From Bacteroidota bacterium (GTDB lineage: Bacteria; Bacteroidota; Bacteroidia; AKYH767-A; 2013-40CM-41-45), in contig JADJFC010000002.1 in the NCBI GenBank assembly GCA_016708785.1, positions 512,308 through 576,307 on the forward strand: 64,000 nt of DNA. Reading direction: 5' to 3'. Below the pieces are notes generated by a model that saw only the letters and a list, made by a program, of their open reading frames with translations, searched no databases and was not told the origin of the DNA. Shown piece by piece: positions 14,014 to 52,948 of this stretch. A program made the position numbers and the translations under genes. Each line of letters starts with the position of its first letter. Within the stretch, counting starts at the first letter, position 1.

Positions 14014-14387
14014 AAAGAATAATCAAAACATCAAATGCGCCTGCACCTATCGGGCCTTATAATCAGGCAGTGGAAGTGAACGGAACGTTATATGTCTCCG
14101 GACAAATTGCCATCAATCCAGCCGATGGCCAATTGGTTATGTTGAATATCATTCGGGAAGCAACGCAAGTAATGGAAAATATTTCAGCAATCCTGAAAGA
14201 GGCCGGCTATACTTTTAGTGATATCGTGAAGACAACAATTTTCCTTAATGAGATGAATAATTTTGCAACCATCAATGATGTCTATGCAAATTACTTCACT
14301 GACAATTTTCCTGCTCGTGAAACTGTAGAGGTTTCCGGACTTCCTAAAAATGTCAATGTGGAGATTTCTGTTATTGCTGTAAAATAA
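14010..14387 (+). CDS. ridA: RidA/YjgF-family reactive-intermediate deaminase
   Basis: 125 aa; SNAPAPIGPYNQAVEVNGTLYVSGQI...TTIFL motif set typical of RidA. Confidence 0.85.
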   Translation: MKRIIKTSNAPAPIGPYNQAVEVNGTLYVSGQIAINPADGQLVMLNIIREATQVMENISAILKEAGYTFSDIVKTTIFLNEMNNFATINDVYANYFTDNFPARETVEVSGLPKNVNVEISVIAVK

Positions 14388-22425: not shown

Positions 22426-22790
22426 GGGGCTGCCCGGATTTGACAGCGGGTGAAATTGGTATGTAAGCATGTCGAGGGTCGGGAGTAAGCCTCGTAAAAC
22501 ACGGTTCCCAAATGCCTAAATGGCAACAACAATTACGCGTTAGCCGCTTAATCAGAAGATTAATCCGCTTTCTACCTTTTGAGAACCTGTTCACCCGTTT
22601 TCATGATTAAGGTATCGTATGGTGAATGCTCTCTGATGATGTTTCCTGCATCAGGTCTAAGATTCAAGGAAAATACGTTGGATGATAGCGCGTGTTTAGC
22701 AGTCATTCCGCCGACAATCAATAAACACTAAACATGTAGAAAGCGTATTGATTGCTTGTCTGGACGAGGGTTCAACTCCCTCCAGCTCCA
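22426..22790 (+). ncRNA. ssrA: tmRNA (transfer-messenger RNA)
   Basis: 5' GGGGCTG...GATTTGACAGCGGG tRNA-like start. Internal tag ORF GGC AAC AAC AAT TAC GCG TTA GCC GCT TAA = (A)GNNNYALAA* at 22522-22551. 3' T-arm and acceptor GGACGAGGGTTCAACTCCCTCCAGCTCCA pairs with the 5' end; the CCA is not encoded. Confidence 0.85.
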
Positions 22791-22825
22791 CAAAACCCCG
22801 CAGGGGATTTGAACTTTAATCTTAA

Positions 22826-33686: not shown

Positions 33687-36600
33687 TCACTGTTTCACAA
33701 CCTTCCAAGTCTTCCTCCAATTCTCCCCTTTAATATTCACCAGATAAATCCCGGCTGCCAAATCTGAAACTCTAACTTGTTTAATTAAAATTCCTGCCTT
33801 CACGAAAATATCCTGAACCAGAATTTGTCCTAGTGCATCCATAACCTGAACAGAGATTTTTTCTGTGCCTGCGAAATCAAAAGCAATGTTGAGCAACTCA
33901 CTTGAGATCGGATTCGGATAGATACGAATTTGCTCTGTAGCAGAAATGTCGTTCACTCCAACCATAAATTGATAATACGATACTGAATGAATACAACCTG
34001 AGATTTGATCAGTGATCACTACCGTATAAAATCCGGTGTGATCCGGTGTAATAGTATTGGTAGTTCCACCAAATGGAACTCCATTGTAGGTCCACGAATA
34101 AAGATATTGTAGTCCTGTTGGTGTTGCAATCAGATCCGGCGCTGAATAATTGATCTCCGGATTTATATCAGTCAAGTTCACGGGTATCGAAGTTGAATTG
34201 GTGCAACCTGAAGCATCTGTAATTGTTACACTATAAGTTCCTGCTGTATCAACAGAGATGCATGATTGAGTTGTACTGTCATTCCACAAATAAGATGTGT
34301 AACCGGAAGTCGCACAAAGAATTCCAACTTCTCCCTGACATAGTTCCGTCTGACCTGCTATTAAAACAGGAGGTAAGCTATTGAAGACAACAACATGCGT
34401 GTCATTTCCAACACAACCTACTGCATCATGAATTGTAACAGAATAATTTCCGTTTGAATTCACGCTTATACATTCTGTGGTTTCTCCTGTATTCCATGTG
34501 TAGTCAACATAGCCGGATGGAACACAAAGTTCCAAAGGTACTCCCGGACATGGTGCATGTGTTCCTGAGATCACCGTTGTTATACTTGAGGAGAAAGTTA
34601 CAGGTAGAGAGCTACTTGCTGTACAACCATTGCCATCGGTAATTGTTACCGTATATGTTCCTGAAGAATTTACATTGATACATCTGGTCGTATTTCCTGT
34701 TGACCATTGATATAATGCACTTCCTGTTGGTGCACATAATTGTCCAACTGCACCCAGACATAATGAATTCGGTCCTGAGATAGTGGCATTCAATTGTGAG
34801 AAAATAGTAAGACCTTTTGATCCTGTCGCTGTACATCCATTTGCATTGGTAACAGTAACTGAATAAATTCCACTGGTGTTTGCGTTGATACAACGGGTCG
34901 TTTGTCCGTTTGACCAAAGATATTGATAGTTAGTTCCAGATGGTGCGCACAACTGCGGATTGCTATTGTAACATGCAGTTGAAGGTCCTGTGATCGCTGC
35001 AGAGAATGCAGGATATGCTGTAAATACTTTTGATGCACTTCCTGTACAACCTGATCCGTCAGTCACGGTTACTGTATAGGTGCCCGAAGTTGTTGGGCTA
35101 ATACATTGTGCTGTTGATCCGTTTGACCATAAAGTTGTTCCTGCCGCTGAAGCACAAAGTTGTGCAGTTTGTCCGGGACAAACACCGGCAGGACCGGTAA
35201 TAGTTAGGTTGAGACTTGCACCAACAGTCAACGTGTGACTTGCACTTCCTGTGCAACCATTTGCATCGGTTAGCTGAACGATATAAGTTCCATCAATAGA
35301 TTTACTGATGCATTGTGTTGTTTCTCCACTTGACCAGAGGTAAGTAGTAAATCCGGAAGGAGCACATAATTGGGCTACTGATCCAAAGCAAACATTTGTC
35401 GGACCGGTTATAACTGCCGGCGTTATTGCATAACTTGAAAGTACATGAGAAGCTGTGCTTTTACATCCATTTCCTCCTGTTACTGTTACTACATAATTTC
35501 CTGAATCAACAACATTGATACAAGATATAGTAGCTCCATTCGACCATAAAAATGTTCCACCAGAAGTAACAGCACATAATTGTACGGTTGTTCCGGGACA
35601 AGCAATTGATGACCCGGTGATAGAAGCAGTAGGATTTGGTAGAATAGTTATAGAGTGAGACGAACTTGAGGTACATCCATTGGCATCTGTTCCTGTTACA
35701 ATGTATGAGCCTGTGGTCAATGGCGCTAAGCATTGAGTAGTTTCACCCGACGACCAGGCATATGATGAATAACCACCTGCTGCACATAACTGCGGAAATG
35801 AATTTGCGCAACCTGATGCAGGTCCTGTGACTGACATTGCAGCTGCAGTATTTACTGTTACTGCTTTCGAATTTGTTGCCGTACATCCGCCGGCATCCGA
35901 AACACTGACAGTATATGTTCCGGTTGAAGCAGGAGAGATGCATTGAGTAGTCGCACCATTGGACCATAAGTATGTACTAAAGCCGGCATCACCACAAATC
36001 TGTGTGCCACTTCCGGAACACATTGTTGCCGGACCGGTTATAGCAACTGAAATGCTACTTCCAAATGTAACAGTATGTGAATCGGACGATGTACATCCAT
36101 TGGCATCTGTAATCGTAACTGTATATGAATTTGTGCTCGCTGAATTGATGCATTGAGTAGTTGCGCCGGTTGACCATAGGTATGAAGATGAACCTGCATT
36201 ACCACAGATCTGCACTGTATTTCCTGTACATCCTGTTGTTGGTCCTGTTATAAGAGCAGTTGGATTTGTATTAACTGTGATCGTATGACTATCTGTTGCT
36301 GTACATCCGATTGCATCAGAAACTGTAACTGTATATGATCCGCTGGATGCTGGATTAATACATTGTGTTGTTGCTTGTTGACCAAAAATAGGCTGATGCG
36401 CCAACTGTTGCACACAATTGCGGATTGGTTGATGCACAGGCTGTCGTTGGTCCGGTAATAGTTGTAGTAAGATTACAAGGATCAGTTGCACAAATACTGA
36501 ATGCACCAAAATCATCATTGCCAACATCCCACATTCTGATCCATACTGTCGCACCCGGAGTTAATCCGGAAACGATCTGAGCATATGGCATTGATGGTGT

Positions 36601-38205
36601 TGTTGAATTGCCTCCTGCATAGCAATTAAATAGTGTCAAGGAAGAGCAAGTTCCTGTATAAACAGCCATTCCCATATCGGTTAGATCTCCTGCAAAAGAA
36701 TTAATGTATAATTTTCCTGAAGCGGGAACTACTGCAGAGAACCATACATCACCATCACCATTGCCGTCACACAAAGTTGCCGGAACTGTAGAATTAGTTG
36801 CTCCTGTGTTATTTGATACAGTTGCACTACAAGAAGTACCAACGGTAAGAACGGTTGCTGAACAAGGATCATCATTTGCAATTCCCGGTGCACTGCAAGG
36901 TGTTAGACAAGAAGAGGTATTAATTCTACTTAGAATGAGTGCCAGCGGTTGTGGTCCAAATCCGAGAGCCAGATTTATTCCATTCCCACCTGAAAGATGG
37001 CAATAGCTCATGATGGTTCCTTTAACAGGTATTACGGCCTGAGCACACCCGCCCGGACTGGAAGGATAACCTGAGGCTGGGCCGCAACCGTCAATTGCTG
37101 TGTTGTTTCCATTCCAAACACAATCATGCGTATGCTCTGATCCAAAATTGTGGCCTTGTTCATGAGAAACAACTTCAACTGTCCAGGAATACGTTGGTAC
37201 ACTGTTGTAATTTGCACTGATGCCGCTGTAGCCCATTCTGTAACTTGTGGAACCATCACAAAGTACATCGAGCCATGCAACACCACCGCCACCTCCGTAG
37301 CCAATAAGATGTGCAAGATCTCCTGTGAATGAAGTTCTGTTTGTTCCAAATTGATCGAGGTAATCTCCAGACGATGGTCCGATGTATGGGTCAACCGTAT
37401 TCCAGATAAAAAGCGACTCCAGATTTACAGTGATTCCATCATTATTATACAATGTCGAAACCTGATTGAATAGTCCGTTGATATATGTACTAACGAGGCC
37501 GATCGACCCTTTGTCTGTATAAATATCCTGATCAGTTTCCCAAGACAAGTTTGCACAATTAACCGAAGAAGTATTATTATTACCACCAATGCGATTATTA
37601 TTTTTTAATTTTTTAATGTCCTCAGTTGTCCCACAAACAAATGGATTAGTTGCAGTAAGATCTTTATCATTGTAAAAGATATGAGTGTTCTGATTGTCAT
37701 TTTTTAATTTACCTAAATTAAAATTTCCACGTTCATCGCAGATCAATCCCATGACTTCATTTTCATAAATAGAAATTGCTGCAAATGAATTGTTCTTGTT
37801 TTCGATCATACCGCGATAGTTTACCGCTTTAGCAGGAACTGCTATCGAATTATCACTTACGGTGATTTTAAAATTTGATGTATAAATTTCTTTCTCGTAA
37901 AGCAAAACGGTAATTGTTCCATTGGAATTTGGATCAGGCAGTTTTAGTCGAAGAAACTTTGGTTTTTCGGCAACGATCTTTTTCAGTTGAGTTTCCGTAG
38001 GCTTCAATAGTTTGAAGGCTGAGACCGTGTTGTTCAACTCCAGTGATACAGATTGTACGCTTGAGAAAATCGATTGATCAGCTTTTTGGAATTTATTTTG
38101 TCCCGAATACTGATTGACCAATTTAGAGATCTCACCGCTTCTGGCAGTAAAGCCAGATGCAATTAGAAAAATGAATAGTAGAGCTTTTAGGTGTGTTTTA
38201 ATCAT
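33687..38205 (-). CDS. Secreted metzincin-type zinc metalloprotease fused to 11 tandem ~73-aa Ig-like repeats (Y(L/A)WS.G.TTQCI...TYTVTVTD.NGC) and a T9SS C-terminal sorting domain. One frame break near the A5 run 36384-36388 (ORF pieces 36355-38352 and 33687-36554).
   Basis: HEQGHNFGSEH is an exact HExxHxxGxxH metzincin signature. Probable start MIKTHLKALLFIFLIASGFTA at 38205 (signal peptide). C-terminal IRIYPNPISSELLNIAF...GIYLVNIKGE matches a Por secretion tail. The C-terminus of the upstream ORF (..LCATVGASAYFW) runs straight into the first repeat of the downstream ORF (..QQATTQCINPASSGSYTVTV). Confidence 0.8.
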
Positions 38206-38378
38206 TGGTTTTATTGTGGTTAAACGACGTGGGAGAGTCGTGGAATTATAGGCTACAAAGTTAAAATTGTTAAGCGATAAATGAAAGGTTATTCGAATCA
38301 GTTTCCCCCAAATAAAAAGGCCTTTCCGAAGAAAGGCCCCTGTCATAAACAAACGTTAATTATATGTCTTTTTGAGTC

Positions 38379-38882
38379 TTAATTCAGGCTCGGATCATCC
38401 GGAAAATTGGCCAGGATAGCATATTGGCTTCCCATCGTTTTCAGGACTTCGCCCCATAACTCTTCAGGGTGTTCAGAAAATGCAAAGTCTTTCTGACAAT
38501 TAGAGATCAACCATGTATGCCCTTTTAATTCTTCTGTCAACTGTTGAGGTTCCCAACCACTATACCCTGCAAAAAATCGAATGTCATTCTTGGTCACTTG
38601 ATGGGTGTCGATCAGAAGTTTTAACATCTCCAAATCCCCACCCCAGAAAATTCCGGGTAAGATCTCCTTACTACCTTCCAATTTTTGACCAAGAGTATGC
38701 AGAAAGTGAATAGTGTCTGTTTGAACAGGACCGCCAAAATAGAGCGGTGCATCAAAAGGAGGGAAGTCTTCCAATGCATCATTCAGATGCATGTCTGTTG
38801 GCTTGTTAAGTATAAATCCAACGGTGCCTTCTTCACTATGTTCACCAAGAAGAATGACCGCTCTTTTAAAATATGAATCCAA
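38379..38882 (-). CDS. yqgE: YqgE/AlgH-family (UPF0301) protein
   Basis: 167 aa; RAVILLGEHSEEGTVGFILNKPTD. Confidence 0.85.
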   Translation of the reverse strand: MDSYFKRAVILLGEHSEEGTVGFILNKPTDMHLNDALEDFPPFDAPLYFGGPVQTDTIHFLHTLGQKLEGSKEILPGIFWGGDLEMLKLLIDTHQVTKNDIRFFAGYSGWEPQQLTEELKGHTWLISNCQKDFAFSEHPEELWGEVLKTMGSQYAILANFPDDPSLN

Positions 38883-39221
38883 TAAAATGGTTCAGAGATT
38901 AATATTCTGCCAACTTCCGGATCTAGATGTACTGCTTTTCGTCTCATGTGTTTGTATTTAAGTAAGCAATTAGTGTGGGTTAATTGATTCCGGTCAGATT
39001 GTCGTCGCAGAACATGATCTATTTTACCCCTATTTAGTCGTGGTGTTCAGACAGAAACTCCGGAAAACTTACAAACATGAATCCAAAAACCGGGATTTCT
39101 GTCAAAAGGATAGATTTCTAAAAAGGCTGGAATTGGCTTAAAATCAAAGCGTGTTTAGGTTTTTCGCCCATTTATTGGTGTTTAGAAGTCAATCGTCACC
39201 GTTTCTCTCCATATTTTTGCG

Positions 39222-39893
39222 ATGTTTGTACTTGCTATTATGAAAAAACTAAAAGACGAAATATTCAACTTACGGGTTGATTTTGCTATTGGATCTCTTG
39301 ATGAGAAAATGATCAGTTCTGACCCTTTTCGGCAGTTCAATAAATGGATGGAAAATGCTCTTGCCGCAAAGGTACTTGAACCTACTGCTATGACGCTGTC
39401 AACGGCTACGAAAAAAGGTATCGTTGGCTCGCGTATAGTTCTACTTCGTGACTTGGATAAAAAAGGATTTAACTTCTTTACGAATTATAACAGTGCAAAA
39501 GGTCGGGAGATGAAAGAGAATAAGAACGTTTCTTTGAATTTCTTTTGGCCGGAATTGCAACGACAAGTACGTATTACGGGTGTCATTGAAAAGTTGCCTG
39601 AAAAAGCCTCGGAAAAATATTTCGCTTCGCGACCTCGCGAAAGCCAGATAGGTGCATGGGCCTCTAATCAAAGCGAAGTTTTAACCAATCGCCAGGAACT
39701 GGAAAGTAGAGTGGAAAAACTCTTCATTGAATTTGATGGAAAAAAAGTACCTCGTCCAAAACATTGGGGCGGATACCGTGTTAAACCTACACAAATAGAA
39801 TTCTGGCAAGGTAGACAAAGCCGACTTCATGATCGATTTCTCTTCAAAAAGTCACGAACCGGAAAATGGACAATGTCACGACTAAACCCTTGA
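39222..39893 (+). CDS. pdxH: Pyridoxamine 5'-phosphate oxidase. The true start is probably the MKKLKDE.. codon at 39240.
   Basis: RIVLLRDLDKKGFNFFTNYNSAKGREM, SRPRESQIGAWASNQS, WGGYRVKPTQIEFWQGRQSRLHDR. Confidence 0.9.
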   Translation: MFVLAIMKKLKDEIFNLRVDFAIGSLDEKMISSDPFRQFNKWMENALAAKVLEPTAMTLSTATKKGIVGSRIVLLRDLDKKGFNFFTNYNSAKGREMKENKNVSLNFFWPELQRQVRITGVIEKLPEKASEKYFASRPRESQIGAWASNQSEVLTNRQELESRVEKLFIEFDGKKVPRPKHWGGYRVKPTQIEFWQGRQSRLHDRFLFKKSRTGKWTMSRLNP

Positions 39894-40004
39894 TTAAATT
39901 AATAATGAATCCCGATAGCAATCGGGATTCATTATTAATAGTTAATTAAAATTTACCGAAGCCTTTTCCGTCTACCTATAAGTAACCAATTCCCAAAAAG
40001 TTTT

Positions 40005-41258
40005 ATGTCCATCCGTATCCTTATTTTTGCTGTTATATTATTTCTAATTGACCTTTACGTCTTTCAGGGAGTAAAATTGTTGATTCAGAATAAAAGTGTC
40101 ATTACCCAAAGGATTGTTTTTTGGGTGTATTGGTCTATAACGGCATTGACAATCTTTACCATTTTCCTTGGACAATGGATTGATTGGCATACCTGGCCCA
40201 AAGCATTACGGGTCTATATATTTGCAATGATCTTTATTGTCAGTCTTTCGAAGATCATTGTTACTATATTTATGTTGTTGGACGATGTCATTCGCTTGTT
40301 CCGTTTTGCATTTGGTTGGATCGCTATAAAATTCTCTTCATCATATGAAGCGAGTGAAAGTTTCAGAGTGTCACGCCTTGATTTTCTGGTGAAGACCGGA
40401 TTTATCCTTAGTGCAATTCCGTTTTTCTCATTGATCTACGGAATGGTGAAAGGCGCTTACAACTATCAGATCCATCGAAGAAATATTGCTTTTAAAGATC
40501 TTCCTGAACCTTTCCACGGAATGAAGATCGTTCAGATCTCTGATCTGCATACAGGAAGTTTTAATACAACTGAACATCTTGCTAAAGCTGTTGAATTGAT
40601 CATGAATGAAAAACCGGATGTGATCTTTTTTACCGGTGATCTGGTGAATGATATTCATACAGAAGCTCTACCGTTCAAAGAAATATTCCAAAGATTATCT
40701 GCTCCGCATGGTGTGTTTTCCATTCTTGGAAATCATGATTATGGCGATTACTATAATTGGCCAAACATTGAAAGTAAAAATGAAAACCTTGAAAAACTAA
40801 AAGCATTTCATGGTGAAGTAGGATGGACACTTATGTTGAATGAACATACCTACCTTGAAAAGGATGGAGCAAAGATCGGTTTGATCGGAGTGGAAAATTA
40901 TTCGGGCAAGAAAAATTTCTCTCGTTATGGCGATATGCAAAAAGCAACGGAAAATTATGAAGTGCAAGGTGTGAATATTCTTCTTTCACATGATCCATCA
41001 CATTGGAATACGCAGATCACAAATGAATATCGGTATGTCGATCTTACTTTGTCCGGACATACTCACGGAATGCAATTCGGTATTGAGATCCCCGGCTTCA
41101 AATGGAGCCCTGTTCAATACATGTATAAACAATGGGCTGACCTTTATGAACAGGAACATCAGAAATTATATGTGAACAGAGGTTTAGGTTTTCTCGGATA
41201 TCCGGGCAGAGTTGGTATCTTGCCGGAAATTTCCGTTTTCAATTTAACCAAAGCCTGA
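40005..41258 (+). CDS. Membrane-anchored calcineurin-like metallophosphoesterase
   Basis: N-terminal TM helices followed by IVQISDLHTGS, FTGDLVND, GNHDY, LSGHTHGMQ phosphoesterase motifs. Confidence 0.8.
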   Translation: MSIRILIFAVILFLIDLYVFQGVKLLIQNKSVITQRIVFWVYWSITALTIFTIFLGQWIDWHTWPKALRVYIFAMIFIVSLSKIIVTIFMLLDDVIRLFRFAFGWIAIKFSSSYEASESFRVSRLDFLVKTGFILSAIPFFSLIYGMVKGAYNYQIHRRNIAFKDLPEPFHGMKIVQISDLHTGSFNTTEHLAKAVELIMNEKPDVIFFTGDLVNDIHTEALPFKEIFQRLSAPHGVFSILGNHDYGDYYNWPNIESKNENLEKLKAFHGEVGWTLMLNEHTYLEKDGAKIGLIGVENYSGKKNFSRYGDMQKATENYEVQGVNILLSHDPSHWNTQITNEYRYVDLTLSGHTHGMQFGIEIPGFKWSPVQYMYKQWADLYEQEHQKLYVNRGLGFLGYPGRVGILPEISVFNLTKA

Positions 41259-41259
41259 A

Positions 41260-42015
41260 ATGCTCTCTAAGAATCGTATCAAAGAAGTAACTGCTCTTCA
41301 CAATAAAAAATTCCGTAATCTGGAAAATGTCTTTATTGTAGAAGGTGAAAAGGTGGTCGGTGATCTTTTGCTTTCAGGCTGGAAAGTGCTCACCATATTT
41401 GCTACGCCTGACTATATCAATCGTAATCGCTTATCAGGGGAAATTTCTTGTGAAGTTTGTACAGAGGATGAGATGTCGAAGATCACTGCTCTCACAACAG
41501 CTTCTCCTGTCCTCGCAGTTGTGGAAATGCCACCAACAGATGTCGAAGTGAATATGCAGAGTGGTTTGAAATTAGTTTTAGATAATGTGAAAGATCCAGG
41601 AAATTTCGGTGCACTTTGTAGAATTGCAGATTGGTTTGGAATCGATGAAATAATTTGTTCGAATGATTCTGTCGATTGCTTCAATCCAAAAGTTGTTCAG
41701 AGCTCAATGGGTTCGCTTTTTCATTTGAAAGTTGTGTATAAAGACCTCACTGAATTATTCAGAGATAACCTTGCACAGAATAAATTGCCGGTCTATGGTA
41801 CACTGATGGATGGCGAAAATATTTTTACTGCCGAACTTTCTCAATCCGGATTTATCGTTTTAGGAAATGAATCAAATGGTATTTCACTTGAAGTAGAAAA
41901 GTACATCACAAAAGCGCTTACGATTCCAATTTTTTCCAATGCCAAAAATGGCTTGCCGGATTCGTTGAATGTTTCTGTGGCGGCGGGGATTGTGTGTGCG
42001 CAATTCCGAAAGTGA
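41260..42015 (+). CDS. TrmH/SpoU-family RNA 2'-O-methyltransferase
   Basis: LVLDNVKDPGNFGALCRIADWFGIDEIIC and a C-terminal SPOUT knot region (IPIFSNAKNGLPDSLNVSVAAGIV). Confidence 0.8.
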   Translation: MLSKNRIKEVTALHNKKFRNLENVFIVEGEKVVGDLLLSGWKVLTIFATPDYINRNRLSGEISCEVCTEDEMSKITALTTASPVLAVVEMPPTDVEVNMQSGLKLVLDNVKDPGNFGALCRIADWFGIDEIICSNDSVDCFNPKVVQSSMGSLFHLKVVYKDLTELFRDNLAQNKLPVYGTLMDGENIFTAELSQSGFIVLGNESNGISLEVEKYITKALTIPIFSNAKNGLPDSLNVSVAAGIVCAQFRK

Positions 42016-42029
42016 TAAATCAAAAAAGT

Positions 42030-42134
42030 ATCTCTGCGGATTTTCTGCGTACTCTGCGTAAATCTGCGGGAAATAATTCACGCAGTATTTTTCTCCCGCA
42101 GATTTACGCAGAGTACGCAGAAAATCCGCAGATT
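42030..42134. repeat. 105-bp palindromic element: 38-40-bp perfect inverted arms (CCCGCAGATTTACGCAGAGTACGCAGAAAATCCGCAGA) around a ~24-bp spacer, each arm holding four CTGCG direct repeats. A second imperfect palindrome lies at about 42185-42262.
   Basis: Direct reading; lies between the convergent trmH-like and FAD-protein genes. Confidence 0.85.
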
Positions 42135-42276
42135 TTTTATTAATCTTTAAAGGAAGATGATTGAGTTAAATAGATTTTTGTAAATGTTGGAGTTTGAGTT
42201 TGTGGTGTGAAGTGTGGGGAGTTACTTGCTACACACTCCACACTCCAACTCAAACTGAACAAACCATCCAATAAAA

Positions 42277-43848
42277 CTAATTTCCCGCAGCAACCGCACA
42301 ATTCTCCCCATCCATCGCCGCCGAAACAATCCCTCCTGCATACCCTGCACCTTCACCACATGGATAAAGTCCAACGATCTCCGGATGCTGTAAGGTCTCC
42401 GGATCGCGCGGAATACGAACTGGTGATGATGTTCGCGATTCTGTTGCTACCAGAATTGCTTCATTCGTGTAATAGGGTTTCATCTTTTTACCAAAGGCTT
42501 TCAATGCTTCTTTCAATGCTGTTGAAACAACAGAAGGAAGAACGTCAGTCAGATCAACAGATGTAGTTCCGGGATGATATGAATTCACCGGCAAACTTGA
42601 CGACACTTTTCCATTCACAAAATCAATCAGTCGTTGTCCGGGAGCTTTCAGATTCCCTTCGCCATATTTGAATGCGCGTTGTTCAACTTCCTGCTGATAA
42701 CGTAATGCAGCCAGATTTCCTGATGCCGCGAATCGTTCGTAATCTTTCGGCTCTATACTTACAACTATTCCGGAATTCGCAAACGGATTATTTCGTTTCG
42801 AAGGTGACCAACCATTCACTACAATTTCTCCCGGTGCAGTTGCAGCCGGTGCAATAATTCCACCCGGACACATACAAAATGAATACACTCCGCGTTTGTC
42901 GTGCTGATGGGTGAGTGAGTAGGAGGCAGGAGGCAAAAATGAACTTCGTACATCACAATGATATTGTACTTTGTCAATGACTTCCTGCGGATGTTCTATT
43001 CGTACTCCTAATGCAAAAGGTTTTGCATCAATTCTTATTTTTCTTTTTTCGAGTAACTCGTAGATGTCACGTGCAGAGTGACCTGTTGCTAGAATTACTT
43101 TCTCACAGCTTCTTTCAAATATTTCATTGCTGTTTAAATTTTTTAAAAGAAGCGCTTTGATCTTATTTGCATTCAGAATAATATCTTCCAAGCGTGTCTC
43201 AAACAATATTTCTCCACCTGCATCTACGATCGTTTTGCGAATAGCTTCTACTAATTGCGGAAGTTTATTAGTTCCTATATGCGGATGAGCATCGATTCGG
43301 ATATCCGGATCAGCGCCATGTTCAATGAGAATGTCGAGGATGCGATTGATATCGCCACGCTTGTTGGAGCGTGTATATAGTTTTCCGTCACTATATGTTC
43401 CCGCACCACCTTCGCCGAAACAATAATTCGAATCACCGTTTACAATTCCTTCGCGATTGATCATTGCAAGATCTCTGCGACGTCGCTGGACATCTTTTCC
43501 ACGTTCGATCACCACCGGTTTTATCCCGGCTTCAATTAGTTTCAAAGCTGCAAACATTCCGGCAGGACCAAAGCCAATGATAAATACTTCTTTGGATTTA
43601 GAAACGTCTTTGGTAAATTGAAACTTTGAAGTGTTGGATGATTTGCTTTCCGGAAGTTCATCCACAAAAACTTCTACCATCATTCGAATCTTCACCGTTC
43701 GTCCTCTGGCATCGATGGATCGTTTCAGCAGTCGAATGTCTTTGATTCGATCTTGTGTCACATTCAAAAGTTGTGACGCCTGCTGCAACTGTTTGCTTTG
43801 ATCTGCTGCCTCTTCCGGGAGAAGGACCAGCTCTAGTTGCTTTATCAT
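42277..43848 (-). CDS. FAD-dependent oxidoreductase of the uncharacterised COG2509-like family
   Basis: 523 aa; Rossmann dinucleotide motif VFIIGFGPAGMFAALKL. Confidence 0.7.
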   Translation of the reverse strand: MIKQLELVLLPEEAADQSKQLQQASQLLNVTQDRIKDIRLLKRSIDARGRTVKIRMMVEVFVDELPESKSSNTSKFQFTKDVSKSKEVFIIGFGPAGMFAALKLIEAGIKPVVIERGKDVQRRRRDLAMINREGIVNGDSNYCFGEGGAGTYSDGKLYTRSNKRGDINRILDILIEHGADPDIRIDAHPHIGTNKLPQLVEAIRKTIVDAGGEILFETRLEDIILNANKIKALLLKNLNSNEIFERSCEKVILATGHSARDIYELLEKRKIRIDAKPFALGVRIEHPQEVIDKVQYHCDVRSSFLPPASYSLTHQHDKRGVYSFCMCPGGIIAPAATAPGEIVVNGWSPSKRNNPFANSGIVVSIEPKDYERFAASGNLAALRYQQEVEQRAFKYGEGNLKAPGQRLIDFVNGKVSSSLPVNSYHPGTTSVDLTDVLPSVVSTALKEALKAFGKKMKPYYTNEAILVATESRTSSPVRIPRDPETLQHPEIVGLYPCGEGAGYAGGIVSAAMDGENCAVAAGN

Positions 43849-43866
43849 TGTATTTGTTATATTTTT

Positions 43867-44319
43867 TTAAAACAATCTTTTATCCCAAAAATAATCTTTG
43901 CTTCTAATTAGCTTTACTTTTTTAGAAAACTCAGGATGCTCTGTATTTATAATGTAATTGTATTCATTTGTAATGACTGCAGATGGGATCTTGAGTACCA
44001 GTGATCTTTTGGAATTGTACTATTCACTTCCAATTTGTTGCAGAGTAGAATAAGATTTTATGGATCGCCAGTTTTTTGGTAAGTTTTTAATTAATATTTG
44101 ATCAAATAAATTCTCTTCATCTGCAAGAAAAATTACCATTACAGCAAATTCATTTTTAGGTACTATTTCTTTTCGGTGAATAATTAATTCAAGTGTTGAT
44201 AATGATCTGGAAGAGTCTGTATAAATCACAGATTCCCCATCTTTATTCCAACGGTTGGCTTTCCCTGAAGAAGAGAGTTTTGTCGAAAATTTCTTTGTTG
44301 AAATTCTAAATGTTTCCAT
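43867..44319 (-). pseudogene. RES-domain toxin gene (150 codons) interrupted by an in-frame TAG at 44020-44022
   Basis: The 99-aa ORF 44020-44319 (..RWNKDGESVIYTDSSRSLSTLE..) continues in the same frame past the TAG as YNSKRSLVLKIPSAVITNEYNYIINTEHPEFSKKVKLIRSKDYFWDKRLF*. The TAG sits where RES proteins carry a Trp (..IGSE[W]YNSKRSLVLKIPSAV), so TGG to TAG is the likely change. Confidence 0.65.
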
Positions 44320-44741
44320 TAAACATTGTCTCCGTATTCCATTGCAGTTAACCGGTCATCTATAAATTTTATTCCACTAAACGTTTTTAAATTCTTTCCG
44401 GGAGATTCGTTATCGAAGTAAAAATTTTCAGTTTTTAACCAATTTTTAAATTCAATATCAGAACCAAAGACATTTATTCCATGTTTAAACAGGGCAATCA
44501 AAGCAACAGTGTGCTCTTGAAGTCTGTCGCTCAATTGTTTTCCACTCGACTTGTAACTTCTGAATGTTTTGACATTCAGATCAAGGATTCCCGAAATTTC
44601 AATGTCATTCAGATTAGAATAATTTTTAAATGCAGCGAAGTATTTATAGGTGATTTCCCACGTATTTAAATATTCCTGAACTAAAATCAAATCGACACAT
44701 TTAGGAATTTTGTCTAAAAACGAAACTGATTTTGTTGCCAT
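44319..44741 (-). CDS. DUF2384-type (MbcA/ParS/Xre-like) antitoxin partner of the RES toxin
   Basis: 140 aa; C-terminal FGSDIEFKNWLKTENFYFDNESPGKNLKTFSGIKFIDDRL matches the RES-antitoxin C-terminal domain pattern. Its stop overlaps the RES start. Confidence 0.6.
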   Translation of the reverse strand: MATKSVSFLDKIPKCVDLILVQEYLNTWEITYKYFAAFKNYSNLNDIEISGILDLNVKTFRSYKSSGKQLSDRLQEHTVALIALFKHGINVFGSDIEFKNWLKTENFYFDNESPGKNLKTFSGIKFIDDRLTAMEYGDNV

Positions 44742-44815
44742 CTTTCTTTCAAAGAGTTAAATTATATAGATAGGTAAAATTACTTTTAAACTCAAGTAAA
44801 ATTACCCTTGTATTT

Positions 44816-46324
44816 TTATTTGATTATAACAAATTTATCTTTCTTATCTAAATTATTTGAAGAGTTGATTTGATAGGAATAAATTCCTGGTGGTAGTTCA
44901 ATTAATGAAACAGTCGTCAACATTTGCTGATCAGGGAGTTCAACGCATCTTACAAGCTCGCCTATCGAATTAAAGATCCGGAGTTTGGATTTATTAAATA
45001 GTTCGTTCGAATAAACTGTGATTTCGTTTGATGTTGGATTTGGATAAACTGTAAATGCTATTTTGATGATTTCATTTACTTTATTTGTGAGTGTATCGCA
45101 AGCACTCCCCACCACCGGACCTAAGTCATACTCCGGATTATTGGGAAGGCCCCAATAGGTTCTTTTCCCTCCGAGGTAAAAACTAAATGGCTGAAAGTCG
45201 CAGGCTAAACCTAGAGAATCAGGAAAATTCACAACCCCTAAATTTTGATTGATGTAATTATACATCGAATCTGCATACGGATAATTTAATGCATTCGACG
45301 GAATGTATGCTTGTGCATAATAGATCTTCCCATCCGGACCTCGTCTCACTGCACCTGCATCTGTAGGAACATAACGGGTACTGTCAAGTGTATCACATGA
45401 TGCAGCAATATCAGATGCGGTTAAATCAAATTGAAGGAGGTAATTGTAATCGCCGAAATTTCCTCCAAAGCTGTTGTAGGTTAAATAAAAAACATTTCCA
45501 TTGGCCGAATAGGCACCTTCATTAAATAATCGGGTGTAGTTTGAAAATTGTTGCGAAAAAATAATTCTATTCAGTGTAATAATACCGCTACATCTGTCAA
45601 AATCATATTCAGCCATTAATCCACTAGCATTAATATTAATAAATTTATTGTACGATGGATGCCAGATAATTTTCTGAAAGTCAGTATCTTTTCCTATACC
45701 GAAAGTTTGAACAATCGGTGCACAAACACTATCTGGAGTAATGAGGTAGACATAATACCTATCAATATTTCCGGTTGGATTAGAACTGAACTTACCAATC
45801 AACCACCAGTCCCGTCCATTCCCATGCTTTACCGCTGTCAGACAATCAGCACCACGGTACGCTCCAATCGGCACATTTTTTCTTACAACATCTCCTAGGC
45901 CGCCATTGAGATTCATGTCCATTAAGGCGTAGTAAGTTGTGTCGATTGCGCCAGCATCTCCAAGATAAAAGTTATAATATTCATGGTTGGATTCGGGTTT
46001 AGGAACTATCAGATTGTCGTTGTACAAGCCCCAGCCTTGTAACAAGGTACAATTAGGCATCACAGTATGATTTGCTGATAGAATTTTAGTTAATGCATAG
46101 GACACATAACTGAAAGAGTAAAACACCAAATTACCTGAAGAGTCACTGATACTCGAACACCCCCCCCTACCATCCATACCGGTTGAAATAGGAACAGGAT
46201 TGTTTAGGTTTCTAAAATCGATGCCAGCGCTGTCGCCAAAGCACCAGATGCTGTTACGGTTTTGAGCAGAAACATCTTGTTTGAAAATTAATAATACTGC
46301 GAGGAGAAGGAGTAATTGTTTCAT
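44816..46324 (-). CDS. Secreted protein of unknown function with a T9SS C-terminal sorting domain
   Basis: Signal peptide MKQLLLLLAVLLIFKQDVSAQ; C-terminus TVYPNPTSNEITVYSNELFN...GIYSYQINSS matches a Por secretion tail. Confidence 0.7.
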   Translation of the reverse strand: MKQLLLLLAVLLIFKQDVSAQNRNSIWCFGDSAGIDFRNLNNPVPISTGMDGRGGCSSISDSSGNLVFYSFSYVSYALTKILSANHTVMPNCTLLQGWGLYNDNLIVPKPESNHEYYNFYLGDAGAIDTTYYALMDMNLNGGLGDVVRKNVPIGAYRGADCLTAVKHGNGRDWWLIGKFSSNPTGNIDRYYVYLITPDSVCAPIVQTFGIGKDTDFQKIIWHPSYNKFININASGLMAEYDFDRCSGIITLNRIIFSQQFSNYTRLFNEGAYSANGNVFYLTYNSFGGNFGDYNYLLQFDLTASDIAASCDTLDSTRYVPTDAGAVRRGPDGKIYYAQAYIPSNALNYPYADSMYNYINQNLGVVNFPDSLGLACDFQPFSFYLGGKRTYWGLPNNPEYDLGPVVGSACDTLTNKVNEIIKIAFTVYPNPTSNEITVYSNELFNKSKLRIFNSIGELVRCVELPDQQMLTTVSLIELPPGIYSYQINSSNNLDKKDKFVIIK

Positions 46325-46368: not shown

Positions 46369-49300
46369 TTATTTTATTAAAACTAATTTATCAGTTTTTA
46401 CTAAACCATTGGATGTGATAACTTGATATGAATAAATACCTGACTGCAATTCGATTAGTGAGAAGGTTTGTAGCGTTTGAAAGTCATTTAATATAACGTG
46501 AGTAACAAGAACTCCAGTAGAATTATAAATTTTGAATTCAGAATTCAAAAATGGCTGATTGGAGAAGATTGTGATTTCATTCGAAGTTGGGTTCGGGTAA
46601 ACTACTACTGAGTTGATTACAGACTTAACCGCTTTTGGACGATTCGATTTTCTGTATTGAGGCAATTGATCGTGAACATCTATTCTCAACATTGCTCTCG
46701 CCATATATACTGCCTCTCCACCATAAAACGGATGTTGCAAAGCGACAGCTGTTACTAATGCAATGGTGTCAGAATCCATGTCTAAGTCAACATCATAGCC
46801 CATTGCTATTAAGCCGGAAATAAATTTATTGTTTTCATCAATGGAGTTAAGATTCTGCATTGAATTCAATTTGCTGATTGCTTCCTGAATTTCTTTAACA
46901 GACAAAGACGCTTTGATGTCTTCAAACTTTCCAATATTTGTTTGAGCAATCAAGTTATACTTTAACTGATAAAGCATATCGGTCGGATAACCTAAATTTA
47001 AAACCGTAGGATTGTCTTTGGCCTGCTTGTAGAAGAAGGCTTTATCTCCGTGAGCATATTCAACTGAATCTACTTCTGTTTCGCTGCTGTCACCTACCGC
47101 TTTGCCAAATGCTTCTTTTCTCTTTTCATCGTCAATGAAACTGGTTGGTGTTGTACAACCAGACAAAGTCAATAGGCAAGGTCGAGGGGAAACCATGAAG
47201 CCCGCCGGAATCGGAGCAAATTCTGGATCATATGGTGCATCTGAATAAAGCCATCTGAAAGCTGATTGATTGTAAAGCCCATCTACTTTATTGTCGATGT
47301 TGTCTTTCCAACGGTTGTTCCAAGTAGTGCTTAAATCATGGTCATAGTTTGGATTAAATATAGCAACACCCTGATCAGTCATCCTGTTATTCGGGTTTTG
47401 GTCGTCTAAAAATACACCGTTATAGCAATTGTCCATGAGGTTACAATACAGATTGTCGTTTGTACAATCATCAAAAACATTAAATCCTGCTGCAAAATTG
47501 CGAATGGTATTTTCTTCAAAAATGCATTTAAAACTACGAGCCACAGCAATGCCTTTTTGGTTTTGTAATAAGTCTCTGGAAATGGAACCTGAAACAAATG
47601 GACCACTCCACAAGACAGTATTAACGATAACTTTTACATTATTACTATTCTGGACCCAAATGCCATAATGATCAATAGTAGTTTGATCAAACGGAATTTG
47701 AGAGTTATAAGTATTTCCGTCGATCGCCATAGATCCATTAGAATTTAAAAAATGAATACCAATGGCACTGTTCAAAATTGAATTAGTAGATACCTTAACG
47801 GGGGTAAACTGCGGAACTTTGTTGCGAACATCAATCGAAGTATTCCCATATGAAATTAAATCTAATCCATAAGTTAGTCCGGGATTAAAATAATTATTAG
47901 CAACAATATGATTTTCCGGACAACACAGATCTCCCGGATCAGGGAAAATTGCATCGTAGATTTCTATTCCATTGTAAAAATTCTTTACTACATTATTATT
48001 GGAAACACTTTCGCGGATATTGGTCAATGAAATTCCACGATAGCAATTATTCAAATTATTATGATAGGAATTTACTTTTTCAACACCATTGCACTGTACT
48101 CCCCAGCCTGCATTGGAAAACGTATTGAATTCATTGCTTCCGGAGCCACCAACAATAATAATATTTCCGTCTTTTTCTATTTCCTGCTCCTTTGCCACGA
48201 ATTGCACATGATCTACCTTCTTGAGGATTAAAATCATTGTGAAATACAAACAGACTGCTATAATTAGCATTGATTCCAACAGCACCTTTCAAAAATGAGT
48301 TGGTATTTCGTGCAGCATCTCCAATTACAAGATCAGTTACATTGTCGAGTTGAATATGAGCTCTTGTAATTTGATTAACATGTGGCGCTTTAGAAATAGG
48401 AGAAGAACAGTCAAATGTATTTCCATATATTGTAGTTTGAATCAAAGGGAAAGATCCATTTGAAAGTGAAATATCATAGTAGTTTTTATCAAACCTAGAA
48501 CCCGTAACAATAATTCTATTACCATTAGCTGATGAAATTGCAGAAATAGCATCTTGAATAAGTGAATTGTTACTAACAATTACAACTCCACCCGAGTTTA
48601 TTATTCCGCCCCACATATCTCCACAGCCATAGAGCCACGAAGTTATATTTGGCAAACCTACCTTGTCAGTTATTGTAAAAAATTTTCCGGTTTGTACTGT
48701 TATTGTCACTCCACTTCCAATTGCTAAAGTACAACCTTTCAGAGTAACGTTTTTAGTTATATTCAAATTTGAATTTAAATTGTATTGGCCTGTTAATTCA
48801 AAAGGTGTAACAAGATTATCAATAATTGTCTGCGTTAGATCTGTTGAATAATTTCCACAACAAGCCATATTCATTGCAGAGAAGTTGTATTGAGCAGATG
48901 CTGTACACTGATTAGCGTCTGTTACTATAACTGAGTAAGTTTGAGGGATACTTGCATTAATACATGGTGTAATTTCCAAAGAGCTGGTCCAAGAATAAGC
49001 GGAGAAGTTCTGTGGATTAGTACAAAGTTGGGCACCTGTACAATTTGAGGATGGAGTGTTTATTGAAACTGTTGGGTTCTGATTTTTTGTGAAGGAAATT
49101 GTATTTGAAACAACGGGCAATCCTGAAACGCAACTTGCATTAGATAAAATTATGCACGTGATAGGATTCGTTCCAAATGGAATTACAGACGAAGAAAGCG
49201 TTGAGTTTGTACCTATAGTAGTTGCACCAGATTTCCATTGATAAGTTGGATTCGGGACATTAGTTGTAGCAGTCAAAACACTTGTGGCCGCACTACAAGT

Positions 49301-52300
49301 AGGATTTGTACCTGTTGTTAACGCTATAGATGCATTCGCTGTAATGTTAGAATTTACAGTTGCAGTACTTGACAACGTAAAAGTGCAGCCGTTATAGTCT
49401 GTTACCGTATTTAGGGTATAGGTACCAACGGAAGGTTGAACAAAAGTGTAAACACTGTTTGGACAATTAATGGTTTGATTCGATCCATTATTATAATTCA
49501 CTATCCACGGGTTTGTGCCTGACAAATTCAACAATAAATTGGCTCCAGAGCAAATAGTACTAGTGCTAAAAAATGCGTTTACAGGTTGTGGGTTATTTAA
49601 AGTAACTGAAGAATTAACCTGACATCCTTTATTGTCAGTCACAGTTACCTGATAATTTCCAGACGGCAAACCGCTAATTGTGGCAGTTGAAAAAGCATTG
49701 GACCACAAGTAAGTGTAAGGTGTAGTTCCTCCATATACATTTGCAGTCGCACTTCCATTCGTATTGTTATTGCAAAGTGGGTCTGAAGAAGTGGTGTAGG
49801 TATGTAGTGCAGTCGGTTCAGAAATGGTTACACTCGAAGTACCTGTGCAGCCATTAATATCAGTTACTGTAACAAGGTATGAACCAGCAATTAGGTTACT
49901 TGCTGTTTGCGTGTTTTGAATGGGATTTGAGTTCCAATTGTAAGAAAATGGGCCAGTTCCACCGCTAGGAATAGCAGTAGCTGTACCAGAAGGACCACTA
50001 TTGCATAGAACATTTGTTGATGTAGTTGAAATAGTCAAGGCTGAATTCAGAGAAACTGATGTACTCAATGTACAATTGCTTCCACCAACCTGAGTAACAA
50101 CTACCGAATAAATTCCAGAAGCTAGATTTGAAATAGAAGAAGTATTTGCGGAATTTGACCATAAATATGTGTATGTAGTACCCCCACTTGGATTCATGGT
50201 CAAAGAGATTTGCCCAGTATTTGCTCCTTGGCAGTTTGGTTGAATAGCAGAAATATTTGAAATGTAAAATCCATAAGGAAAACTATTTGAAGTCCGGCAA
50301 TTAGTTCCTAGAGATACTATTACTCTATACTGTCCGTATGTGTTTATTGTAATTTGTTGCGTAGTGGCTCCGGCAAGGACATTCCACAACCCGGCGACTG
50401 GGTCAAATAGAAGCCATTGGAAGCTATAATTTCCATTTGAATTATCAATTGTGTTTTCTTCAATGATCGCGTTTCCTCCATTACAGGCATCGCCACTAAA
50501 AAATGCAATTGAAGGTTTAGACATTGTAGTGTATTTCGCTATACGTGAACAGCCATTTCCTTGATCAATTTCAACTGAATATGTTCCGGATCCAACAGTA
50601 ATTGTATTAGCATTAGAACCATCATTCCAGGTATAGGTACTTCCCGATGAAGGAACTAATGTAACATTTGAAGTTGAAGAGCTACAATTGGACGCAATTG
50701 AGGCAGGTGGATTACTTTTAATGTCTACTGAGACAAGTGCAGAATTTCCTGCACAACTACCTGTCGACTTAGAATAAAAATATTGATTCAAGCCTACTTC
50801 AGTTGGATGAAAGTTAGATCCTGAACCAACAACAATATTTGGATTAGCAACTTTATACCAAGTCAATGTGCCCGAAACATTTCCGGCCAATACTATTGGT
50901 TGATTTTCGCAAACCTCATAAACAGAACCATTCATTATATAATCGCCAATCACCTCGATATTTAGGCCGGAATTTGTTGTCCATATTTTTTTGGAAAAGG
51001 AATATGAATAGTTGCAATTTCCATCTGCATTTGGGTAATTTTAATTAAAGTTAATGTATCAGTATAAGGGTTATTAGTAGATGAAGTATTGAGGTCATAG
51101 CCGGGTAAACACAGATTAGTTCCAGCATTTCCTGATTGATATGAAATTGCATAATCGTTTGATGTACCAGTTGTACAAGAAAGATTTCTAATTGGAGTTT
51201 GCAAATCACCAATTGCATTTATAAGAGTAAAATTATATTGCAATCCTTCTTCTAATGGTCCCTGGTAATTTATATCTATTGGTACGGTTGTACTCGTTGT
51301 GCATTTTGGGGCATCATTCGTATAGAAAAGAGCGGGGTGATCTAACTGTCCAAGCATCATACTTGAAGTGAACCACTGAGTAGCTCCCGGTTTTACAATA
51401 TTCTCTTCAACAGATGATAAATTAGCGTCACCATGTGTCGCACCAGGTGTTCTCCAATCATTATAATACAATCTTTCGGCACTAAACAAATTGTGTATAT
51501 AGTTTGGGTTTGTTGTTGAAAATGGGGCAGATGAAACTTCCGTAAACCATTTTCCAAAAAAGTCGCCATCACCATGGTAATAGGTGGCATCCTCAGCACT
51601 GAAAATCGGTCTAACATTAGAAGCGTTTTTATTGCTTGATTGGCGAAATAAATTTAATCGTGAATTATAGAGTGGATATGTAAAAGAAACATCAGGGTAA
51701 TGCAAATAAGTATGTAAAAGTAATCGATCAACCATCGGAGAAGTATTTGTTCCATCAATAAAATTTGCTACCAATGGAACTTGGTTTCCTGCATCTTTAT
51801 TGGCATCCGAATCATACAAATATCCTAAATAAATTTCAGATTTTACTCCTGAAGCTATTGCAATAGTTTTTAGCATGGGTAAATATTCAGTACTAATCTT
51901 ATTCCATTTCCCGGTTATAGATGTTATTCCATCGCCATCATTTGTGCGATTCCAGAATTCGTATTCCATATTTAAGACATCAAAGTCAGGGCAATGTCCT
52001 TGAGTGGTTGAAATAGAATTTCGACGATAAATTCCTATTGCGAAACGGAATAGTTGTTGTGTATAAAAAAGAGGATCCGTTGTTGTTATTGATGCTGATT
52101 CAATTGCATTTATTAACATCGCATTATTCCCAAGAAGTGCTTTTTCAGCAACGGTTAAGGTGAATGATAATACTGTGAAATTGGAACTGTAGCTTACCAA
52201 ATCTTGAAATGATGAACTTGTAAATCCAACCGCACCAAAACTATTTATACAATAATTGTTCTTGGCTTCGGTCATGAAATTGCATAATCGATCATTCAAG

Positions 52301-52628
52301 TAATTGTATAGTGACGGATTATTTGCTAATAAATCACCATTAGTTAAATTTCTCATATCATACAGAGTAAGATATGTTATTCTATTTTCCTTGCAAAAAT
52401 TTAATAATTCAATCTCTTTTTCAAAAACACCATCTGCAGGGTTTTTGTCAACCCCTAATATTGACAAGTTAGGGTCTAACTGAGATTTTCCTGCTGCATC
52501 AATGTAGAGGGTAATAAATTTGTCAACATACATGCCTCTAGGTTGATCAGCTAACTGTGAATAGACAGTGATAGCTAAAAATTGCAAGAACAAAAAACTG
52601 GCAGAATTAAATGGTATTTTTTTTTCAT
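46369..52628 (-). CDS. Giant (~2086 aa) T9SS cargo protein. N-terminal ~540-aa domain of unknown function, then SprB-type and Ig-like repeats, a right-handed parallel beta-helix and a T9SS sorting domain. Three frame breaks: A9/T9 run 52617-52625 at the start, T7 run 50979-50985, and one within 48131-48285. ORF pieces are 50962-52593, 48131-50953 and 46369-48285.
   Basis: Adding one A to the A9 run gives MKKKIPFNSASFLFLQFLAITVYSQLADQ (signal peptide). Adding one A at 50979-85 joins ..IHIPFPKK to IWTTNSGLNIEVIGDYIMNGS... SprB repeat (GGTTPYTYLWSNAFSTATISGLPSGNYQVTVTDNKGC). C-terminus VVYPNPTSNEITIFSNQPFL...GIYSYQVITSN matches a Por secretion tail. Confidence 0.75.
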
Positions 52629-52948
52629 TGTAAGAAGTTTTAAGGTTTAACGATTTAATTTTAAACTAAGGAAATCCTTTATAACATTTGTCAAGATAGT
52701 AATTTTTTAGTAAATAATTAATCTCTATTTAAAATTTAATTTAAGAATTTTAGAGAAGTATAATTTGTAAAAATATTCATAGAAGAGTCATCTATTTTGA
52801 GAATAGAAAGTGGTATGGAAGAAAAAAGCTGATTTATCTAATTTTGGTTACTTTGTTAAAAATTTGGGGTCATGTTGAAATATAGATATTGGTATTATAA
52901 AAATGCCCAAAAGTGCGAAATAAAAAGCTCTTTAGATTTATTTTCTCC

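Follow-up and report, generated by a model that had tools for sequence, protein, structure and literature searches.

The toxins of the RES family include NADase, NAD+ phosphorylase and protein ADP-ribosyltransferase enzymes (PMC7758455, PMC6436930). The best solved relative of the toxin described here, both by sequence (residues 21–149) and by fold, is found in the ParST pair of Sphingobium sp. YBL2 (PDB 6D0H), whose toxin ParT ADP-ribosylates Prs (PMC7758455). The Xre–RES pair of P. putida (6GW6, 9R35) and MbcTA of M. tuberculosis (6FKG) have the same RES fold and the same antitoxin domain, PF09722. The P. putida RES protein is an NADase, MbcT is an NAD+ phosphorylase, and both are farther from the toxin described here than ParT. 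P. putida Xre–RES represses its own promoter through repeats (PMC12204516). Degraded type II loci provide a second point of comparison: surveys describe most orphan antitoxins as remnants of degraded canonical systems, and a possible anti-addiction role, protection against incoming toxins, has been proposed (PMC7354431).

We analysed a RES/Xre pair in a window of Bacteroidota DNA (the whole 64,000-nucleotide stretch under study). The antitoxin gene comes first, as it does in ParST, and ParT has a Trp that aligns with codon 100 of the toxin gene. However, identity is only ∼ 30%, the present toxin stops short at codon 100, and the antitoxin falls below the cut-off of the NCBIfam family NF049845, Xre_ParS_antitoxin (72.3 bits vs 90; E = 3e-20, profile positions 2–109 of 112). 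Judged by its sequence, the antitoxin is a diverged relative of this curated subfamily. The conserved repeat pair upstream of the genes resembles the autoregulatory promoter repeats of P. putida Xre–RES (PMC12204516). The locus differs from both Xre–RES and MbcTA in that its repeats are two direct copies of a near-palindrome, a putative operator, and in that the toxin is a pseudogene. With degraded type II loci and orphan antitoxins it shares the loss of the toxin and the retention of the antitoxin, a recognised fate that the original prediction had already described as a typical decay path for type II systems. Compared with other degraded loci, the decay is at a very early stage (one nonsense codon, no further lesions), the allele is found in all sampled strains, and intact orthologues occupy the same site in sister lineages. 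We read the locus, from sequence comparison, as a chromosomal RES/Xre (ParST-like) type II operon in which the toxin was recently pseudogenised by a TGG to TAG change and the antitoxin was retained, and we put the probability of this reading at about 0.87.

Anatomy and family of the pair

The genes and the sequence elements of the locus are as follows.
44319..44741, minus strand: antitoxin gene, 140 codons, intact, with ATG at 44741 and TAA at 44321..44319
44020..44319, minus strand: 5′ part of the toxin gene, with ATG at 44319..44317, 99 sense codons and the premature TAG
44022..44020, minus strand: amber codon TAG, toxin codon 100 (the plus strand reads CTA)
43867..44019, minus strand: 3′ remnant of the toxin gene, 50 codons in frame with the original TAA at 43869..43867; untranslated
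44768..44807, minus strand: operator/promoter-like block upstream of the antitoxin gene, GGGTAATTTTACTTG-N8-AGTAATTTTACCTATCT
44805..44796 and 44783..44774, minus strand: GTAATTTTAC twice, as direct repeats whose starts are 22 nt apart

Sequence and translation agree with all coordinates of the pair in the original prediction, and also with its description of the toxin gene as a single 150-codon frame except for the TAG at 44020–44022. Indeed, minus-strand translation from 44319 to 43861 contains a single internal stop, codon 100, in the context ...LQQIGSE(stop)YNSKRSLVLKIPSAV.... Base 44319 is the last base of the antitoxin stop codon and also the first base of the toxin ATG, giving a one-base overlap. 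The layout is that of a type II operon, with small, adjacent, co-oriented and translationally coupled genes and a putative operator upstream. A gene for a 523-aa FAD-dependent protein lies 18 nt downstream of the pair; no terminator-like site was found between them, and an Rfam scan of 41900–45000 gave no RNA family in the toxin–antitoxin region. The 256-aa and 523-aa genes are convergent, and a long inverted repeat lies between them at 42033–42132. It has 44-nt arms with 95% complementarity and a 12-nt spacing, TCTGCG units are abundant in it, and its only Rfam matches are sub-threshold generic hairpins (miRNA-precursor).

The original prediction of a RES toxin paired with a DUF2384 antitoxin (the domain is now called Xre_MbcA_ParS_C) is supported by Pfam and NCBIfam matches to both proteins. 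The C-terminal toxin-binding domain of the antitoxin matches Pfam PF09722 over residues 89–137 (33.3 bits, cut-off 24.5). Residues 21–112 align weakly (E = 0.027) with the NatR antitoxin (8qnl_A), helix-turn-helix included, and no Pfam helix-turn-helix matched the antitoxin at E ≤ 0.01. A helix-turn-helix around residues 40–65 is probable on this alignment. A scan of genome contigs yielded the orthologous locus L012 (from a Bacteroidota MAG, JANOBV010000318.1) and more distant relatives, but not the species of the window itself. The antitoxin is 91% identical to the L012 orthologue (pN 0.041, pS 0.67), it has the same length and C-terminus as its homologues, and the motif RLTAMEYGDNV is common to distant homologues. 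By these measures the antitoxin is intact, as had been proposed.

The block upstream of the antitoxin gene, GGTAATTTTACTTG-N8-GGTAATTTTACCTATCT, is kept in six loci in which the surrounding sequence has diverged. Each copy of GTAATTTTAC sits within the near-palindrome GGTAAnnTTACC. This 10-mer has only two sites in the 64-kb window, both of them in the block, against 0.21 expected. The GGTAATTTTACC repeats are candidate antitoxin-binding sites and, by analogy with P. putida Xre–RES (PMC12204516), the block is probably an operator bound by the antitoxin.

Translated through the stop, the toxin matches Pfam RES (PF08808) with 53.6 bits (cut-off 23.2, profile positions 11–157 of 157) and NCBIfam NF049844, Res_ParT_toxin, with 119.7 bits (cut-off 110, positions 1–147 of 147). 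The 99-aa ORF alone scores 25.1 bits against Pfam RES (positions 11–109 of 157), and the codons after the stop contribute the remaining 28.5 bits. Since these codons extend the match, their homology to RES is real and the domain continues past codon 99. The closest solved structure by sequence is ParT (6d0h, E = 1.3e-15); VPA0770 and P. putida RES come next. Residues R23, R38 and E44 are invariant in the homologues and are all encoded in the 5′ ORF; Ser113 is nearly invariant and is encoded only 3′ of the TAG. The R-E-S signature of MbcT is R47-E69-S126 (PMC6436930), and we match the toxin Arg to the MbcT signature Arg by order only, not by direct alignment. The fold was examined by proxy, using the AlphaFold model of an intact homologue, P0001, which is 81% identical (pLDDT 92.3). 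The model has the ADP-ribosyltransferase-like fold and is most similar to ParT (TM 0.83), then to VPA0770, P. putida RES (0.80) and MbcT (0.77).

Codon 100 and the truncated toxin

Position 100 is Trp in 120/120 of the best full-length homologues from a search of 5.8 billion proteins. The aligned residue is likewise Trp in ParT, and it is Phe in VPA0770. GAATGGTAC of L012 aligns with GAATAGTAC of the window, and the corresponding codons are GAA TGG TAC vs GAA TAG TAC, a single G-to-A transition that turns TGG into TAG. The original prediction placed an amber codon at a conserved Trp and attributed it to a substitution rather than a homopolymer indel; the homologues and the single change relative to L012 agree with it on both points. 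We estimate from the 38% G+C of the window that a random 50-codon stretch would be free of stops with a chance of ∼ 3%, and the segment after the stop has 86% amino acid identity to L012, far beyond chance. An uninterrupted frame for the complete RES domain is absent from the window and from all eleven conspecific loci. Because the TAG is present in all of them, we assign the gene as a pseudogene of the RES family and not as a functional member.

In the P0001 model, Trp100 is located near the end of helix 87–103. Translation would end after residue 99, with loss of the end of this helix and of the strand that carries Ser113. Mapped onto the model, the stop removes strands 108–112 (with Ser113), 120–125 and 135–142 together with a short helix. 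The ADP-ribosyltransferase-like fold forms one compact domain with eight core strands, three of which are missing from the 99-aa product. We infer from the model that the truncated product could not form an NAD+-binding enzyme. In MbcT, the Ser of the R-E-S motif is dispensable for toxicity and Arg27, Arg47 and Tyr58 are essential (PMC6436930). The case for inactivation consequently rests on the loss of a third of the fold and not on Ser113. Separate expression of the C-terminal fragment was considered and rejected, since the 3′ remnant offers no ATG or GTG start in its frame and a TTG only at codon 149; no minus-strand ORF of at least 30 aa is listed within the remnant. The original prediction spoke of a disarmed NAD+-degrading toxin. 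With a third of the fold missing, the toxin is probably disarmed; NAD+ degradation is a plausible chemistry for the ancestral toxin, whose nearest relative, ParT, is a protein ADP-ribosyltransferase.

Alternatively, a function other than toxicity could have preserved the 99-aa fragment, which might, for instance, help the antitoxin to assemble into a DNA-binding repressor. Such a role would be in line with P. putida, where neither Xre alone nor a 2:2 complex represses and the 4:2 Xre–RES complex does (PMC12204516), and with the intact state of the 5′ ORF, of its translational coupling to the antitoxin and of the upstream repeats. However, a compact domain that lacks three of eight strands is unlikely to fold, and two conserved sites in the fragment have undergone radical change, G35D (Gly in 118/120) and S64F (Ser in 87%). 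We consider this role improbable and prefer the reading of the fragment as the product of a pseudogene.

Age of the stop and decoding of TAG

In two loci, L012 and L025, the 150-aa toxin is intact and has Trp100, and the pair directly precedes the same 523-aa FAD-dependent gene as in the window, whose product is 96% (L012) and 97.5% (L025) identical to that of the window. With intact pairs at the same site, the module must already have been there in the common ancestor, and loss of the toxin is confined to the lineage of the window. In comparisons between these lineages the codons after the stop have pN values of 0.062–0.079 (0.077 against L012) vs pS values of 0.53–0.90; synonymous sites are near saturation (pS 0.5–0.9). 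Three-taxon estimates of nonsynonymous branch length were obtained for two parts of the gene.
Toxin codons 101–150: window 0.018, L012 0.060, L025 0.044
Whole toxin: window 0.046, L012 0.039, L025 0.055
The codons after the stop thus still look selected, with no excess change on the window lineage. A remnant that has almost always been under purifying selection points to a nonsense mutation that is recent relative to the lineage splits.

The window toxin has radical replacements at conserved sites, E141K in addition to G35D and S64F, and it deviates at 5 of 65 highly conserved columns (the stop counted; mean 1.6). Parsimony places 14 changes on the window branch vs nine on the L012 branch, a difference that is not significant. 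Long-standing relaxed selection on the toxin is not claimed, since the branch lengths show no acceleration and the parsimony difference is not significant. Among the window, L012, L025 and L023, pS is higher in the toxin and antitoxin genes (43870–44741; 0.54–0.90) than in the 523-aa gene (0.35–0.47), a contrast that might stem from different codon usage or from an exchange of alleles within the module.

Perfect preservation of the remnant would also be predicted if the TAG were read through, constitutively at a low level or conditionally, and the gene encoded a gated full-length toxin instead of being a pseudogene. The frame is indeed fully kept across the 50 codons that follow the stop, and on the window branch these show no excess of change. 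In the conditional variant, a TAG-reassigning phage would supply an amber-suppressor tRNA, and Bacteroidota are known to be infected by phages with suppressor tRNAs in which TAG stands for Gln (bioRxiv 10.1101/2021.08.26.457843; PMC9523058). However, the preservation is equally explained by a recent mutation, and several observations argue against read-through. Other genes in the window use TAG as an ordinary terminator: it ends two of the 34 long ORFs, including that of the adjacent downstream gene at 42277, and the frames split by TAG (7) are not in excess of those split by TAA (18) or TGA (23). ARAGORN found no tRNA gene, suppressor included, in the 64-kb window. Since Trp100 is invariant (120/120), Gln inserted by a suppressor may not give an active enzyme. 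Only one truncated cluster occurs among the 120 best homologues, so gating is not recurrent in the family. Finally, the base after the stop is T, which favours efficient termination in E. coli. We give read-through little credence. Reassignment of TAG was rejected, given its use as a normal terminator, the lack of an excess of TAG-split frames and the lack of a suppressor tRNA in the window. The sole RNA gene that ARAGORN found there is a tmRNA (22426–22791, tag peptide GNNNYALAA). An in-frame TAA occurs elsewhere in the window at 14385–14387 (plus strand), between stop-free stretches of 130 and 158 codons; the two stretches may belong to neighbouring genes or to a further interrupted gene.

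In its most specific form, the argument would make the amber codon a gate, the full-length toxin with Gln100 being made only when a phage delivers an amber-suppressor tRNA. We regard this as very improbable; if it were true, the gated locus would be an abortive-infection sensor against alternative-code phages. A recently pseudogenised toxin remains our preferred reading.

Spread of the allele and its meaning

The exact 99-aa product is present on 75 contigs and in 168 data blocks of independent public assemblies, which come from NCBI (GCA_020051655.1, GCA_963851495.1, GCA_018063425.1), JGI and ENA; the contigs bear MEGAHIT-style and SPAdes-style names. Ten fetched loci (L002–L011) match the window at every base of the pair; locally they depart from it at one base alone, in the run of A that immediately follows the final TAA. 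Among the ten are L004 and L007, strains that diverge from the window elsewhere. A separate contig, L001, has the same TAG and one further amino acid change. No 150-aa protein of more than 81% identity was found among the database representatives in the 5.8-billion-protein search, and no assembly of the species shows TGG at 44020–44022. Two scans of a metagenome-contig collection, one for either allele (TAG or TGG) and one for a flanking 31-mer, gave no match, which reflects the absence of the species from that collection, given that the first pattern does match JGI-derived loci. The intact orthologous toxin of L012 is 84% identical to the window toxin. The original prediction called the stop codon probably real; we find that it is real and that every genome sampled from this uncultured Bacteroidia species carries it. 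That the TAG is a mistake of sequencing or assembly and the gene in truth intact is effectively excluded: although the window carries probable assembly noise (five one-base homopolymer differences from L002), the TAG is a substitution and not a homopolymer indel, the same allele recurs across different samples and assemblers in the ten loci, 75 contigs and 168 blocks and on the separate contig L001 with its extra amino acid change, and the protein database contains no intact allele.

The window differs from L002 by a 2-nt indel and, at five homopolymers, by one base in run length. Indel sites are at 48176, 51043 and 52598, and also at 38888, 43869 and 36375. The first three split a 2086-aa SprB/Por_Secre_tail gene (46369–52665) into three overlapping ORFs. 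This gene is intact in L002, L003, L005, L006, L008 and L010, and its splitting looks like long-read assembly noise, not biology. In L004 and L007, a divergent segment (∼ 34067–43250, 87.6–96.6% identity) has its boundary inside the 523-aa gene at ∼ 43250, ∼ 600 nt from the pair, and looks like a recombination tract. That the pair varies little was rejected as a special feature, because the flanking 6 kb are equally invariant across strains.

Since the sampled strains are nearly clonal at the locus, they give no power to show that the 3′ remnant is now neutral. As judged from the sequence comparisons, the stop is recent relative to the split from the sister lineages, yet older than the spread of the sampled strains. 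We propose that a G-to-A transition at the invariant Trp100 codon ended translation of the toxin and would have left the antitoxin gene, the one-base overlap and the upstream repeats intact. With these three elements intact, the cell probably still makes an orphan antitoxin. This antitoxin may be retained for protection against incoming homologous toxins or for gene regulation, or it may simply not yet have decayed.

The finding is an ordinary one and leaves the understanding of toxin–antitoxin systems unchanged. It provides a clean, well-dated example of a RES/Xre module at the first step of decay, reached by one nonsense codon in an uncultured Bacteroidia species that has been widely sampled, and it gives annotators a firm reason to prefer ‘pseudogene fragment’ over ‘hypothetical protein’ for the 99-aa ORF. 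The window and its intact orthologues also form a natural TAG/TGG allele pair for work on the toxicity and chemistry of the poorly studied ParT-like RES branch of the Bacteroidota.
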